This document shows, in pieces, positions 1-8,741 of a stretch of 8,741 nt of DNA. The notes beneath the pieces were generated by a model. The model was not told where the DNA came from, made no database searches, and saw only the letters and a list, made by a program, of their open reading frames with translations. The stretch lies in the IMG/VR virus record IMGVR_UViG_2713896788_000008, one strand, 5' to 3'. Position 1 is the first letter of the stretch. Each line of letters starts with the position of its first letter. Source of the stretch: a virus (taxonomy: Duplodnaviria; Heunggongvirae; Uroviricota; Caudoviricetes). Both the position numbers and the translations under genes were made by a program.

Positions 1-59
1 TGGCAGAATGTCTGGAGAAAAAAGGACTGTACCGGAGAGCAGCTGAACGATGGGCAAAA

Positions 60-299
60 GTGATGGTACAGCTAAGTGATGACCAGAAAAGAAAAGTGGC
101 GGCACAGAAACGAGCAGAGTGTTTGCGTAAGGCGCGCCGGACTCCGGTTTCACCGGTGAACCTGACCGAAATAAAACAAGCGGTCAACAGACTACATTCT
201 GAGTTGGGAATGGGATTTGAAGAGCGGCGGGTATTCCGACGATATAAAGGGACAGGAGAACAGAATACGTCCGGAAACGCGCGGTCAAAAAAATGCTAA
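60..299 (+). CDS. Small basic hypothetical protein (79 aa from the GTG at 60; ATG at 63). The reading frame is open back to the window start, so the true start may lie upstream of the window.
   Basis: ORF track 60..299; the same frame translated from base 3 has no stop (AECLEKKGLYRRAAERWAKV precedes the annotated start). Lysine/arginine-rich. Followed by a terminator hairpin at 340-362. No family recognised with confidence. Confidence 0.45.
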   Translation: MMVQLSDDQKRKVAAQKRAECLRKARRTPVSPVNLTEIKQAVNRLHSELGMGFEERRVFRRYKGTGEQNTSGNARSKKC

Positions 300-380: not shown

Positions 381-711
381 TTAAGTAAACCTGTCTGAAC
401 AGGTTCTCTGGTCGTGTTTGTCTTTGTTGGGTACAAATTGAGAATATTTTTCATTAATTAATCTTCTTCTGCAGGCTTCAATAACCCACGCTGAAAAATT
501 TCCTGAACCTTTCAGATCAAGAGCGATGTTAATTTGTTCAATCATCTGGTTTGGAAATCGGATGTTGCGGGTTGTTGTTNNNNNNNNNNNNNNNNNNNNN
601 NNNNNNNNNNNNNNNNNNNNNNNNNNNNNCGATGTTAATTTGTTCAATCATCTGGTTTGGAAATCGGATGTTGCGGGTTGTTGTTCTGCGGGTTCTGTTC
701 TTTGATGACAT
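381..711 (-). CDS. Ribbon-helix-helix-like small DNA-binding protein, interrupted by scaffold gap 580-629. If the duplicated 56 bp is collapsed, it encodes a 74-aa protein MSSKNRTRRTTTRNIRFPNQMIEQINIALDLKGSGNFSAWVIEACRRRLINEKYSQFVPNKDKHDQRTCSDRFT.
   Basis: ORF track 381..647 (contains X from the N-run). Reverse-complement reading of 686-711 continues in frame into the duplicated block with an ATG at 711..709. The pattern of a beta-strand (NIRFP), helix (QMIEQINIALDL), G-x-N turn and second helix (FSAWVIEACRRRL) is typical of Arc/MetJ/CopG-type RHH proteins. Coordinates as given include the artefactual gap. Confidence 0.55.
524..685. other. Assembly artefact: 56-bp perfect direct duplication (524-579 and 630-685) flanking a 50-N scaffold gap (580-629)
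   Basis: The sequence cgatgttaatttgttcaatcatctggtttggaaatcggatgttgcgggttgttgtt appears immediately before and immediately after the N-run, as expected for two overlapping contig ends joined with a spacer. Confidence 0.8.
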
Positions 712-842
712 AATGTTGCCCCATATTCAGTGTTGCTGATTTGTATTATCTGAAGTTGCTTTTACGTTAATTTGATGCAGATCAATTAATACGATACCTG
801 CGTCATAATTGATTATTTGACGTGGTTTGATGGCGTAGATGC

Positions 843-892: not shown

Positions 893-963
893 TGCACGTT
901 GTGACATGTAGATGATAATTATTATCATTTTGCGGGTCCTTTCCGGCGATCCGACCGGTTACG
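893..963. promoter_or_regulatory. cosQ: Right-end cos segment (cosQ-containing region) of a lambdoid genome
   Basis: gtgacatgtagatgataattattatcattttgcgggtcctttccggcgatccgaccggttacg closely resembles the last ~60 bp of the lambda right end as I recall it (...GGGTCCTTTCCGGTGATCCGACAGGTTACG). The exact cosQ boundaries are not determinable from sequence alone. Confidence 0.6.
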
Positions 964-975
964 GGGCGGCGACCT
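964..975. promoter_or_regulatory. cosN: cosN cohesive-end sequence (12-nt 5' overhang, GGGCGGCGACCT)
   Basis: Exact match to the lambda cohesive end GGGCGGCGACCT, followed by CGCGGGTTTTCGCTATTTATGAAAATTTTCCGG (976-1008), identical to the start of lambda DNA as I recall it. Confidence 0.85.
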
Positions 976-1008
976 CGCGGGTTTTCGCTATTTATGAAAA
1001 TTTTCCGG

Positions 1009-1150
1009 GGAAAATCATGTCGGTACTTCTCGAACATAACTATTTGTTTTTTCTAATATCGAATCCGTAAAGGTCCGACATGAAAACGCCTGAAAAAGTC
1101 ATTTTCGGGCACTTTCATGTCGGACCCTGTATTTGTTGTGAGACTGTTTC
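1009..1150. promoter_or_regulatory. cosB: cosB-like terminase small-subunit binding region with three R elements (R3 1015-1026 direct, R2 1073-1083 inverted, R1 1115-1126 direct) and an AT-rich spacer that is a candidate IHF site
   Basis: tcatgtcggtac (1015-1026), gtccgacatga (1073-1083, exact reverse complement of tcatgtcggac) and tcatgtcggacc (1115-1126). The direct-inverted-direct layout copies lambda's R3-I1-R2-R1, but the motif differs from lambda's CGTTTCC-containing R sites. The R3-R2 spacer 1027-1072 is AT-rich. Confidence 0.7.
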
Positions 1151-1670
1151 ATGAAGGTTAATAAAAAGAAACTTGCCGAAATTTTCAACGTGGATCCGCG
1201 AACGATTGAACGCTGGCAGTCTCAGGGGCTCCCTTGCGTCTCCGGAGGTGGTAAGGGCGTTGAATCTGTATTTGATACCGCCACGGCAATTCAGTGGTAT
1301 GCGCAGAGGGAAGCTGATATCGAAAATGAAAAACTCCGTAAAGAGGTTGAGGATTACAGGGCTGCCAGCGAGGCAGATCTCCAGCCTGGGACTATTGAGT
1401 ACGAATGCCATCGACTTACGCGTGCGCAGGCTGACGCCCAGGAGCTGAAGAATGCCAGAGACTCCGCAGAAGTGGTGGAAACCGCATTCTGTACTTTCGT
1501 GCTGTCACGGATCGCAGGTGAAATTGCCAGTATTCTTGACGGGATCCCTCTCTCAGTACAGCGGCGTTTTCCGGAACTGGAAAACCGACATGTTGATTTC
1601 CTGAAACGGGATATTATCAAAGCCATGAACAAAGCAGCCGCGCTGGATGAACTGATACCGGGGTTGCTGA

Positions 1671-1696
<26 letters not shown>
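1151..1696 (+). CDS. nu1: Terminase small subunit (Nu1-like), 181 aa
   Basis: ORF 1151..1696. From about residue 50 onward (ADIENEKLR...LSEYIEQS) it matches lambda Nu1 as I recall it; the N-terminal winged-HTH region ([36 protein letters not shown]...) is related but clearly divergent. Lies 187 bp downstream of cosN, as in lambda. Overlaps the start of A by 26 bp. Confidence 0.9.
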
Positions 1697-5377
<3,681 letters not shown>

Positions 5378-5397
<20 letters not shown>

Positions 5398-6697
5398 TCT
5401 CCCGCATATTGCCAGCATGGCTTTTAATGAGCCGCTGATGCTTGAACCCGCCTATGCGCGGGTTTTCTTTTGTGCGCTTGCAGGCCAGCTTGGGATCAGC
5501 CGCCTGACGGATGCAGTATCCGGCGACAGCCTGACTGCCGGAGAGGCACCCGCGGCGCTGGCGTTATCCGGTGATGATGACGGACCACGACAGGCCCGGA
5601 GTTATCAGGTCATGAACGGCATCGCCGTGCTGCCGGTGTCCGGTACGCTGGTCAGCCGGACGCGGGCGCTGCAGCCGTATTCGGGAATGACCGGTTACAA
5701 CGGCATTATCGCCCGTCTGCAACAGGCTGCCAGCGATCCGATGGTGGACGGCATTCTGCTCGATATGGACACACCGGGCGGGATGGTGGCGGGAGCATTT
5801 GACTGTGCTGACATCATCGCCCGTGTGCGAGACATAAAACCGGTATGGGCGCTGGCCAACGACATGAACTGCAGTGCAGGTCAGCTGCTTGCCAGCGCCG
5901 CCTCCCGGCGTCTGGTCACGCAGACCGCCCGGACAGGCTCCATCGGCGTCATGATGGCTCACAGTAATTACGGTGCTGCCCTGGAGAAACAGGGCGTGGA
6001 AATCACGCTGATTTACAGCGGCAGCCATAAGGTGGATGGCAACCCCTACAGCCATCTACCGGGTGATGTCCGGGAAACACTGCAGTCCCGGATGGATGCA
6101 ACCCGCCGGATGTTTGCGCAGAAGGTGTCGGCATATACCGGCCTGTCCGTGCAGGCTGTGCTGGATACCGAGGCTGCAGTGTACAGCGGTCAGGAGGCCA
6201 TTGATGCCGGACTGGCTGATGAACTTGTCAACAGCACCGATGCGATCACCGTTATGCGTGATGCACTGGATGCACGTAAATCCCGTCTCTCAGGAGGGCG
6301 AATGACCAAAGAGACTCAATCAACAACTGTTTCAGCCACTGCTTCGCAGGCTGACGTTACTGGCGTGGTGCCAGCGACGGAGGGCGAAAACGCCAGCGCG
6401 GCGCAGCCGGACGTGAACGCGCAGATCACCGCTGCGGTTGCGGCAGAAAACAGCCGCATTATGGGGATCCTCAACTGTGAGGAGGCTCACGGACGCGAAG
6501 AACAGGCCCGCGTGCTGGCAGAAACCCCCGGTATGACCGTGGAAACGGCCCGCCGCATTCTGGCCGCAGCACCACAGAGTGCACAGGCGCGCAGTGATAC
6601 TGCGCTGGATCGTCTGATGCAGGGGGCACCGGCACCGCTGGCTGCAGGTAACCCGGCATCTGATGCCGTTAACGATTTGCTGAACACACCAGTGTAA
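5378..6697 (+). CDS. C: Head maturation protease gpC (S49/ClpP-like serine protease family), 439 aa, GTG start
   Basis: The ORF-track frame 5243..6697 is open from 5243, but the lambda gpC N-terminus (TAELRNLPHIASMAFNEPLMLEP) begins at the GTG at 5378, preceded by the Shine-Dalgarno gaggaggag (5368-5376). That gives 439 aa, as in lambda, and a 20-bp overlap with the end of B. Confidence 0.88.
6092..6697 (+). CDS. nu3: Scaffolding protein Nu3, made by in-frame internal initiation within C (201 aa)
   Basis: In-frame ATG at 6092 (MDATRRMFAQKVS...) shares the C stop codon; the 606-bp length equals lambda Nu3. Established lambda gene arrangement. Confidence 0.7.
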   Translation: MDATRRMFAQKVSAYTGLSVQAVLDTEAAVYSGQEAIDAGLADELVNSTDAITVMRDALDARKSRLSGGRMTKETQSTTVSATASQADVTGVVPATEGENASAAQPDVNAQITAAVAAENSRIMGILNCEEAHGREEQARVLAETPGMTVETARRILAAAPQSAQARSDTALDRLMQGAPAPLAAGNPASDAVNDLLNTPV

Positions 6698-6706
6698 GGG
6701 ATGTTT

Positions 6707-7039
6707 ATGACGAGCAAAGAAACCTTTACCCATTACCAGCCGCTGGGCAACAGTGACCCGGCTCATACCGCAACCGCGCCCGGCGGATTGAGTGCGAAAG
6801 CGCCTGCAATGACCCCGCTGATGCTGGACACCTCCAGCCGTAAGCTGGTTGCGTGGGATGGCACCACCGACGGTGCTGCCGTTGGCATTCTTGCGGTTGC
6901 TGCTGACCAGACCAGCACCACGCTGACGTTCTACAAGTCCGGCACGTTCCGTTATGAGGATGTGCTCTGGCCGGAGGCTGCCAGCGACGAGACGAAAAAA
7001 CGGACCGCGTTTGCCGGAACGGCAATCAGCATCGTTTAA
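6707..7039 (+). CDS. D: Head decoration protein gpD, 110 aa
   Basis: [56 protein letters not shown]...AGTAISIV matches lambda gpD. The ORF track starts two codons earlier at 6701 (MFMTSKE); the lambda-equivalent start is the ATG at 6707. Confidence 0.92.
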
Positions 7040-7059
7040 CCTGACCCTTCATCACTAAA

Positions 7060-7081
7060 GGCCGCCTGTGCGGCTTTTTTT
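7060..7081 (+). terminator. GC stem-loop followed by a T-run between D and E (attenuator or mRNA-stability hairpin)
   Basis: ggccgc (7060-7065), loop ctgt, gcggc (7070-7074), then T7 (7075-7081). Confidence 0.5.
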
Positions 7082-7094
7082 ACGGGATTTTTTT

Positions 7095-8120
7095 ATGTCG
7101 ATGTACACAACCGCCCAACTGCTGGCGGCAAATGAGCAGAAATTTAAGTTTGATCCGCTGTTTCTGCGTCTCTTTTTCCGTGAGAGCTATCCCTTCACCA
7201 CGGAGAAAGTCTATCTCTCACAAATTCCGGGACTGGTAAACATGGCGCTGTACGTTTCGCCGATTGTTTCTGGTGAGGTTATCCGTTCCCGTGGCGGCTC
7301 CACCTCTGAATTTACGCCGGGATATGTCAAGCCGAAGCATGAAGTGAATCCGCAGATGACCCTGCGTCGCCTGCCGGATGAAGATCCGCAGAATCTGGCG
7401 GACCCGGCTTACCGCCGCCGTCGCATCATCATGCAGAACATGCGTGACGAAGAGCTGGCCATTGCTCAGGTCGAAGAGATGCAGGCAGTTTCTGCCGTGC
7501 TCAAGGGCAAATACACCATGACCGGTGAAGCCTTCGATCCGGTTGAGGTGGATATGGGCCGCAGTGCGGCGAACAACATCACGCAGTCCGGCGGCACGGA
7601 GTGGAGCAAGCGTGACAAGTCCACGTATGACCCGACCGACGATATCGAAGCCTACGCGCTGAACGCCAGCGGCGTGGTGAATATCATCGTGTTTGACCCG
7701 AAAGGCTGGGCGCTGTTCCGTTCCTTCAAAGCCGTCAGGGAGAAGCTGGATACCCGTCGCGGCTCTCATTCCGAACTGGAGACAGCGGTAAAAGACCTGG
7801 GCAAAGCGGTGTCTTATAAGGGAATGTATGGCGATGTGGCCATCGTCGTGTATTCCGGACAGTACGTGGAAAACGGCGTCAAAAAGAACTTCCTGCCGGA
7901 CAACACGATGGTGCTGGGGAACACTCAGGCACGCGGTCTGCGCACCTATGGCTGCATTCAGGATGCGGACGCACAGCGCGAAGGCATTAACGCCTCTGCC
8001 CGTTACCCGAAAAACTGGGTGACCACCGGCGATCCGGCGCGTGAGTTCACCATGATTCAGTCAGCACCGCTGATGCTGCTGGCTGACCCTGATGAGTTCG
8101 TGTCCGTACAACTGGCGTAA
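7095..8120 (+). CDS. E: Major capsid protein gpE (HK97 fold), 341 aa
   Basis: MSMYTTAQLLAANEQKFKFDPLFLRLFFRESYPFTTEKVYLSQIPGLVNMALYVSPIV... to ...LMLLADPDEFVSVQLA matches lambda gpE. The ORF-track start at 7068 lies inside the upstream hairpin; the lambda-equivalent ATG is at 7095. Confidence 0.96.
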   Translation: MSMYTTAQLLAANEQKFKFDPLFLRLFFRESYPFTTEKVYLSQIPGLVNMALYVSPIVSGEVIRSRGGSTSEFTPGYVKPKHEVNPQMTLRRLPDEDPQNLADPAYRRRRIIMQNMRDEELAIAQVEEMQAVSAVLKGKYTMTGEAFDPVEVDMGRSAANNITQSGGTEWSKRDKSTYDPTDDIEAYALNASGVVNIIVFDPKGWALFRSFKAVREKLDTRRGSHSELETAVKDLGKAVSYKGMYGDVAIVVYSGQYVENGVKKNFLPDNTMVLGNTQARGLRTYGCIQDADAQREGINASARYPKNWVTTGDPAREFTMIQSAPLMLLADPDEFVSVQLA

Positions 8121-8122
8121 TC

Positions 8123-8147
8123 ATGGCCCTTCGGGGCCATTGTTTTT
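8123..8147 (+). terminator. Stem-loop with TTCG tetraloop and T-run immediately after E
   Basis: atggccc (8123-8129), loop ttcg, gggccat (8134-8140), then tgttttt (8141-8147). Confidence 0.55.
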
Positions 8148-8161
8148 CTGTGGAGGAGTCC

Positions 8162-8560
8162 ATGACGAAAGATGAACTGATTGCCCGTCTCCGCTCGCTG
8201 GGTGAACAACTGAACCGTGATGTCAGCCTGACGGGGACGAAAGAAGAACTGGCGCTCCGTGTGGCAGAGCTGGAAGAGGAGCTTGATGACACGGATGAAA
8301 CTGCCGGTCAGGACACCCCTCTCAGCCGGGAAAATGTGCTGACCGGACATGAAAATGAGGTGGGATCAGCGCAGCCGGATACCGTGATTCTGGATACGTC
8401 TGAACTGGTCACGGTCGTGGCACTGGTGAAGCTGCATACTGATGCACTTCACGTCACGCGGGATGAACCTGTGGCATTTGTGCTGCCGGGAACGGCGTTT
8501 CGTGTCTCTGCCGGTGTGGCAGCCGAAATGACAGAGCGCGGCCTGGCCAGAATGCAATAA
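8162..8560 (+). CDS. FI: DNA packaging accessory protein gpFI, 132 aa
   Basis: MTKDELIARLRSLGEQLNRDVSLTGTKEELALRVAEL... matches lambda gpFI. Shine-Dalgarno ggaggag at 8152-8158. The ORF-track start at 8123 falls inside the hairpin. Confidence 0.9.
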   Translation: MTKDELIARLRSLGEQLNRDVSLTGTKEELALRVAELEEELDDTDETAGQDTPLSRENVLTGHENEVGSAQPDTVILDTSELVTVVALVKLHTDALHVTRDEPVAFVLPGTAFRVSAGVAAEMTERGLARMQ

Positions 8561-8571
8561 CGGGAGGCGCT

Positions 8572-8741
8572 GTGGCTGATTTCGATAACCTGTTCGATGC
8601 TGCCATTGCCCGCGCCGATGAAACGATACGCGGGTACATGGGAACGTCAGCCACCATGACATCCGGTGAGCAGTCCGGCGCAGTAATACGTGGTGTTTTT
8701 GATGACCCTGAAAATATCAGCTATGCCGGACAGGGCGTGCG
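8572..8741 (+). CDS. FII: Head-tail connector protein gpFII, N-terminal fragment (gene runs off the window end); apparent GTG start
   Basis: Translation from the GTG at 8572 gives (M)ADFDNLFDAAIARADETIRGYMGTSATMTSGEQSGAVIRGVFDDPENISYAGQGV, matching the lambda gpFII N-terminus. Shine-Dalgarno gggagg at 8562-8567. Confidence 0.85.
   Translation, partial: MADFDNLFDAAIARADETIRGYMGTSATMTSGEQSGAVIRGVFDDPENISYAGQGV

Follow-up and report, generated by a model that had tools for sequence, protein, structure and literature searches.

An intact lambda-family cos site with a phage-21-type cosB/Nu1 cassette, very probably the internal cos of an Sp11-type prophage of EHEC O157:H7

The window, by which we mean the whole 8741-nt stretch of viral DNA analysed here, contains a cos site that is very probably the internal cos of an integrated lambda-like, Sp11-type prophage of EHEC O157:H7, with the anatomy of the lambda family and a cosB/Nu1 cassette of phage 21 type. 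Judged by its sequence, the cos and terminase module is a natural 21/lambda mosaic in which cosB and the DNA-binding domain of Nu1 are both of 21 type. Since both elements are of 21 type, packaging specificity is predicted to be that of phage 21 and not that of lambda, while assembly of the holoenzyme is predicted to be lambda-type. The cos site itself is an already known feature that lies in published genomes, and lambda-21 hybrids made in the laboratory explained its hybrid design long ago. The present analysis assigns the window to a known EHEC prophage, of which it represents the module for cos, terminase and head, and provides coordinates for the cos subsites, which RefSeq does not give for Sp11; the window's cosB is never annotated in complete genomes.

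To define the subsites, the right ends of lambda (NC_001416) and phage 21 (OL657228) were joined in silico to the respective left ends and the window was aligned to both junctions. In addition, the curated features of OL657228 were moved to the window by a constant offset of +963. The subsite positions in the window all coincide with annotated features of OL657228, and the lambda-family cos anatomy is complete and in order, i.e. cosQ, cosN, I2, R3, I1, inverted R2 and R1, followed by Nu1 and A. The cohesive end and the sequences on either side of it comprise the following features:

630-842, plus strand: lambda-like right-arm non-coding DNA upstream of cos, forming the middle scaffold piece (100% identical to Sakai Sp11)
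893-963, plus strand: phage right-end arm of lambda type (alignment to the last 71 nt of lambda)
934-940, plus strand: cosQ heptamer GGGTCCT, the packaging-termination subsite (homology to the annotated phage 21 cosQ)
964-975, plus strand: cosN cohesive-end sequence GGGCGGCGACCT (the same as bases 1-12 in both lambda and phage 21)
976-1012, plus strand: I2 spacer between cosN and R3 (lambda-type up to 1008)

An earlier note on this DNA had placed a cohesive end at 964-975 with lambda-like right-end sequence to its left, and the alignments bear this out. The 12-mer GGGCGGCGACCT is found as a single exact plus-strand copy in the 8741-nt window, compared to a chance expectation of approximately 0.04 even when one mismatch is allowed (dinucleotide-preserving shuffles). 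The predicted nicks, inferred by homology, lie at 963/964 in the top strand and at 975/976 in the bottom strand. To the left of the cohesive end, 893-963 agrees with the 71 terminal nt of lambda at 64 positions and with phage 21 at 37, and the middle scaffold piece (630-842) shows sliding identities of 63-85% to the right end of lambda and of 30-50% to phage 21. The cosQ heptamer is located 23 nt from the nick, which is the spacing of the annotated cosQ in OL657228, and is present in lambda too; directly upstream of it, many unrelated contigs part from the window sequence. The sequence around cosN shows partial two-fold symmetry, with 10 self-complementary positions among the 24 from 958 to 981. 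The name I2 is that used for the spacer segment of lambda cos (PMC4669245).

The note had described everything between the cohesive end and Nu1 as lambda-like left-end sequence, which holds for the first part only. Positions 964-1008 are identical to bases 1-45 of lambda (45/45, compared to 41/45 for phage 21), with the lambda base at all four positions at which the two phages differ, so that the alignment to both lambda ends which the note had suggested as a check turned out in favour of lambda on the right (64/71) and, up to 1008, on the left. In contrast, 1009-1129 matches lambda at only 51 of 121 positions but the cosB of phage 21 at 103 of 121, at equal offset from the nick. Within this segment, the following elements are found:

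1013-1028, plus strand: cosB R3 of 21 type, a small-terminase binding site by homology (15/16 identical to the annotated phage 21 R3)
1037-1049, minus strand: cosB I1, a putative IHF site that separates R3 from R2 (12/13 positions shared with the annotated phage 21 I1)
1070-1085, minus strand: cosB R2, in opposite orientation to R3 and R1 (16/16 positions shared with the annotated phage 21 R2)
1113-1129, plus strand: cosB R1 (15/17 identical to the annotated phage 21 R1)

The R3-I1-R2-R1 architecture as such has been described (PMC9026076, PMC4669245). R1 and R3 are each 1-2 bases off phage 21, and none of the lambda R sequences is present in the window's cosB. A scan of the whole window for the R motif TCATGTCGGNMCY yields three matches, at 1015-1027 (plus strand), 1071-1083 (minus strand) and 1115-1127 (plus strand), where 0.18 are expected; none of 200 shuffles reaches this number. 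Moreover, the R3/R2 and R2/R1 inverted-repeat pairs were recovered by an unbiased repeat search. The IHF consensus WATCAANNNNTTR matches 1037-1049 on the minus strand with one mismatch. As the window contains no excess of this motif (3 matches, 4.7 expected), which thus occurs at chance level, I1 is accepted through its positional homology with the annotated phage 21 site only.

The complementarity between R2 and R1 outruns the R sequences themselves, spanning 1072-1126 with 25-nt arms that are 88% complementary and a loop of 5 nt. This hairpin-like palindrome accounts for sub-threshold Rfam miRNA matches and for a terminator-like match in the cos region. An RNA gene at this position was considered and rejected: the Rfam 'miRNA' match at 1067-1129 scores 28 bits compared to gathering scores of 90-95 and is attributed to chance or to the hairpin, the 'terminator-like' match at 1088-1110 falls on the stretch that separates R2 from R1, and a scan of 1-1300 for promoters and terminators gave counts no higher than those in shuffled sequence. 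A cos of the PICI type, for which cosQ/cosN together with rpp, no R repeats/helper-type cosB and no full-length terS/terL pair are the criteria (PMC9026076), was likewise discarded; the three R sites, Nu1 (181 aa), gpA (641 aa) and the complete head module rule against it.

The 21-type sequence continues from cosB into the gene for the small terminase subunit. The cassette and the two terminase genes are located as follows:

1009 to about 1350, plus strand: phage-21-type cassette, consisting of cosB and the first ~65 Nu1 codons (sliding identity, informative sites)
1151-1696, plus strand: Nu1, small terminase subunit, 181 aa, a 21/lambda chimera (Pfam Phage_Nu1, E = 5e-90)
1671-3596, plus strand: gpA, large terminase subunit, 641 aa, lambda type (Pfam GpA_ATPase and GpA_nuclease)

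Across the cassette, sliding identity amounts to 83-94% for phage 21 and to 48-69% for lambda, and the order flips after ~1350. Informative sites place the left crossover at 1007-1009 and the right crossover at ~1343-1362. The resulting ~340-bp block of 21 type sits within cosQ/cosN/I2, a C-terminal half of Nu1, gpA and head genes that are otherwise of lambda type. With ~85-91% identity to phage 21, the cassette points to a relative of 21, and not to 21 itself, as the donor. The protein sequence of Nu1 reflects the same division. Residues 1-65 are identical to phage 21 gp1 at 58 positions and to lambda Nu1 at 39, whereas residues 73-181 match lambda at 106 of 109 positions and phage 21 at 53. 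The N-terminus, which aligns with the solved structures of the lambda TerS DNA-binding domain (6HN7 and 1J9I), includes the helix-turn-helix (residues 1-29), where 28 of 29 residues agree with phage 21 and 17 of 29 with lambda. As a separate observation, codon 86 of Nu1 (1406-1408) is TGC (Cys) in both the window and Sakai Sp11, while lambda, phage 21 and phage IdasGreatGrand have CGC (Arg).

A plain cos of lambda specificity, at which a lambda cosB is recognised by a lambda Nu1, could be read from the lambda-identical cosQ, cosN and first 45 nt of the left end, and from gpA and the C-terminal 60% of Nu1, which are of lambda type. Such a site is nevertheless extremely improbable in view of the recognition elements: 1009-1129 resembles lambda at only 51/121 positions compared to 103/121 for the cosB of phage 21 and holds no lambda R sequence, and Nu1 sides with phage 21 in the helix-turn-helix (28/29 compared to 17/29) and agrees with lambda at no more than 39 of its first 65 residues. 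Terminases specific for lambda do not package phage 21 chromosomes, nor do 21-specific ones package those of lambda (PMC4669245), and a lambda-21 hybrid with a chimeric TerS has been found to be viable with 21 specificity (PMC9026076, PMC4669245).

Downstream of the cassette, the window is that of a lambdoid packaging module, as the earlier note had recognised. Pfam detects Nu1, the gpA ATPase and nuclease, gpW, a lambda-family portal protein, an S49 protease, gpD, gpE and FI, and the packaging and head ORFs (A, W, portal B, protease C, D, E, FI) are all intact. Gene A shows 91-98% nucleotide identity to lambda A, and its length and overlap with Nu1 are as in lambda. Together, gene A and the head genes show 87-99% DNA identity to lambda, except for 6500-6899. 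This segment, which covers the 3' end of C/Nu3 and the start of D, is ~66% identical to lambda and represents another mosaic patch, in the scaffold/decoration-protein region.

Two runs of N lie upstream of the cos junction, and both are outside of it:

580-629, no strand: 50-N scaffold spacer of zero real length (exact 56-nt duplication, flanks 524-579 and 630-685)
843-892, no strand: 50-N scaffold spacer, likewise without real length (3-nt overlap, TGC, between the flanks)

All three pieces separated by these runs are colinear and overlapping on the Sakai chromosome; the pieces beside 843-892, for instance, map to 8524-8736 and 8734-16582 of the Sakai locus, which corresponds to the 3-nt overlap. 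Since the flanks overlap and the pieces are colinear with Sakai, the N runs are spurious spacers between abutting contigs, and no sequence is missing. Masking of the sequence in place is unlikely, as it would need real tandem duplications of 106 bp and 53 bp and the flanks overlap exactly. Among IMG/VR draft contigs, one starts at the first base of the middle piece and two start 10-21 nt before the second gap (at 821 and 832). These coinciding contig starts fit breaks at repeat boundaries in prophage-rich genomes. The spacer at 580-629, together with the 56-nt duplication, artificially splits a minus-strand gene of the YlcI/YnfO family, the equivalent of EDL933_RS10080, which occupies ~381-605 in de-duplicated window coordinates.

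The position of the spacers raises the question of whether assembly or scaffolding could have wrongly joined the ends of two unrelated contigs at the cos junction. Two N-filled gaps occur within 400 nt upstream, position 893 is the first base after the nearer one and cosN is only 71 nt away from it. Furthermore, the cosQ-cosN core (930-1009) is a multi-copy element in E. coli, present in 4675 of 5426 complete genomes and in up to 8 places per genome. We nevertheless assign a mis-join a practically negligible probability. The window is unbroken from 893 onward, i.e. 893-1150 and what follows belong to one uninterrupted piece, and cos is crossed without interruption, just as the earlier note had stated. 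An exact 72-mer spanning the right end, cosN and R3 recurs in 29 IMG/VR and 4 metagenome contigs, none of which contains N runs; the same 72-mer has no match in GTDB representative genomes. In addition, 435 complete-genome records contain the 531-nt region 930-1460 with an identity of 99% or more, and the pieces beside both gaps are colinear and overlapping in Sakai.

To trace the origin of the window, we compared it by megablast to the 5426 complete E. coli genomes, which identified it as the Sp11-type prophage of O157:H7. Compared to Sakai (NC_002695.2), 1-579, 630-842 and 893-2260 are 100% identical, and 893-8741 as a whole is 99.83% identical. The 13 substitutions relative to Sakai Sp11 include none before 2261, and 12 of them fall in gene A. 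These 12 cluster at 2261-3332 (~1.1 kb), with a single one in the other 6.8 kb. This cluster suggests either a patch acquired from another copy of a lambda-like prophage, by recombination or gene conversion, or a collapsed-repeat consensus in a short-read assembly.

The match in Sakai lies inside the annotated 'prophage Sp11, lambda-like phage' (2158311-2204088), with cosN at ~2182395, i.e. 24.1 and 21.7 kb from the two prophage ends. The Sakai flanks of the window are in prophage order, with the lysis genes and pchB upstream and the head and tail genes downstream. The map of a prophage is circularly permuted relative to that of the virion. The virion ends are thus joined at a cos in the middle of the prophage, and a chromosome assembly crosses it. 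At its left edge (1-299, plus strand), the window carries the 3' part of a PerC-family regulator (Pfam PerC, E = 5e-26), which is pchB in Sakai (ECs_2182). The window begins 16 nt inside the CDS of pchB, a cargo gene that encodes a virulence regulator of EHEC and is located between the lysis module and cos. The window's cosB was found in 650 of the 5426 complete genomes, with a median of one per genome, and all 670 places are chromosomal. The prophage status of the window is suggested by this identity to complete chromosomes, the 8.7-kb window itself comprising neither bacterial flanks nor an att site.

The earlier note had left three origins side by side, namely an integrated prophage, a circular or concatemeric replication form and a virion genome circularised by the assembler. 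The first of these is favoured by the identity to Sp11 and by the chromosomal location of all 670 cosB places. A free phage genome, be it virion DNA that the assembler closed into a circle or a replication intermediate in circular or concatemeric form, would explain why the window shows no host flanks, and GenBank phage records with the same module cross cos internally, too, as exemplified by IdasGreatGrand, where cos is found at ~15.3 kb of a 47.9-kb record. This origin appears quite improbable, however, because 1-2260, including pchB, is base for base that of the chromosomal, non-excising Sp11, while IdasGreatGrand parts from the window upstream of ~930. The fixed 50-N spacers with overlapping flanks also speak against a free phage, as do the piece boundaries that recur as contig ends in IMG/VR contigs derived from isolate genomes. 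Such spacers and recurring contig ends are typically seen in draft assemblies of bacteria with many repeated prophages. Finally, Sp11 shows no excision, replication or packaging in Sakai, and its DNA was not found in particles (PMC2669165). According to the same study, the repressor (cI) and integrase (int) genes of Sp11 are disrupted, while the terminase is intact and the morphogenesis set is complete (Asadulghani et al. 2009, PMC2669165).

For the integrated Sp11-type prophage, the packaging reaction can be sketched from the model for lambda and phage 21, in which IHF bends the DNA at I1, Nu1 occupies R3 and R2, and gpA acts at cosN (PMC9026076). By analogy, dimers of the winged helix-turn-helix of Nu1 would bind to R3 and R2 on either side of the bend that IHF induces at I1. 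This binding would position gpA at cosN, where the predicted nicks are 12 nt apart (963/964 in the top and 975/976 in the bottom strand). The DNA would be packaged rightwards, with the Nu1/A end entering first, and packaging would stop at the next cos, where cosQ, cosN and I2 should be needed. Termination requires cosQ, cosN and I2, but not cosB specificity (PMC4669245). Because Sp11 is an integrated, non-excising prophage and there is one cos of 21 specificity per genome, we infer that a packageable unit is absent. An incoming phage of 21 specificity could at most begin abortive packaging at the Sp11 cos. In strain Sakai, the Sp11 cos is structurally intact but probably idle. The occurrence of the same chimeric cos/Nu1 module in phage IdasGreatGrand argues that the module is functional in principle.

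Two further ways in which the packaging module might be used were considered as well. Packaging in situ that starts in the tandem neighbour Sp12 and runs from cos to cos into that of Sp11 was rejected, Sp12 having a different terminase and no cosN-like 12-mer in 50 kb. In Sakai 2200000-2249999, the terminase genes of Sp12 measure 563 nt and 1661 nt, with a DNase gene just upstream and a large portal gene. Given this different packaging module, the tandem neighbours Sp11 and Sp12 use unrelated packaging systems. Cross-packaging of other O157 prophages by the window's terminase is unsupported, as the cosB occurs once per O157 genome.

The distribution of the two parts of cos bears on how specificity can be read. 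Whereas ~86% of complete E. coli genomes contain the cosQ-cosN core, ~12% have the cosB type of the window, usually once. The packaging specificity of O157 prophages is not readable from cosN alone, and the distinction between core and cosB bears on the question of which terminase can package which defective prophage. A more far-reaching idea, which we consider possible but doubtful, is that cosB and the Nu1 DNA-binding block may act as a self-contained packaging-specificity cassette that is swapped between lambda-like phages, giving the EHEC Sp11-type prophage a private 21-type specificity. If this were true, the Sp11 terminase would be insulated from co-resident lambda-like prophages with the common cosQ/cosN core, and the Sp11 cos would be a decoy only for superinfecting phages of 21 specificity.

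Among known systems, Sp11 of Sakai, with counterparts in EDL933 and other EHEC, is essentially identical in sequence to the window and has the same gene order (pchB, ylcI/ynfO-like gene, cos, Nu1, A, W, B, C, D, E, FI). The two differ by the 13 substitutions described above (12 at 2261-3332) and by the two artefactual 50-N spacers, which only the window contains. Escherichia phage IdasGreatGrand (PP925829.1) carries the same chimeric cos/Nu1 module as the window, with 97.7% identity over 931-1150 and 98.9% identity for Nu1. Upstream of cosQ it has an anti-repressor gene and a hypothetical gene where the window has pchB, the divergence setting in at ~930. Its large terminase is annotated as a 144-nt hypothetical ORF and a 1746-nt CDS (3061-4946) and not as one gene A of ~1.9 kb. 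This split may be due to a frameshift, a sequencing error or the annotation.

With lambda (NC_001416), the window shares the architecture of cos, the cosQ sequence, the cohesive end of 12 nt and bases 1-45 of the left end; its right end is similar (64/71), and identity amounts to 91-98% in the C-terminal half of Nu1, in gpA and in the head genes. Lambda differs in the R sequences of cosB and in the DNA-binding domain of Nu1 (51/121 and 39/65, respectively). Phage 21 (OL657228, M81255) presents the complementary picture. Its R3, I1, R2 and R1 are found at the same offsets from the nick as in the window, while its right end, I2 spacer, TerS C-terminus (53/109) and TerL are unlike those of the window. 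The design is also that of lambda 21hy51 from the Feiss laboratory, in which the corresponding lambda segments are exchanged for the cosB of 21 together with the 5' portion of gene 1, and in which the chimeric TerS binds lambda TerL (PMC4669245, PMC9026076). A natural chimera of the hy51 type is not mentioned in the packaging papers cited here, although the sequences are all public. Like the window, lambda 21hy51 combines the cosB and the TerS helix-turn-helix of 21 with the TerS C-terminus and TerL of lambda. However, lambda 21hy51 was constructed and has a 21 block of ~600 bp, whereas the mosaic of the window is natural and its block measures ~340 bp. Moreover, the 21 block of the window begins after base 45 and, unlike that of lambda 21hy51, leaves cosN and I2 of lambda type.
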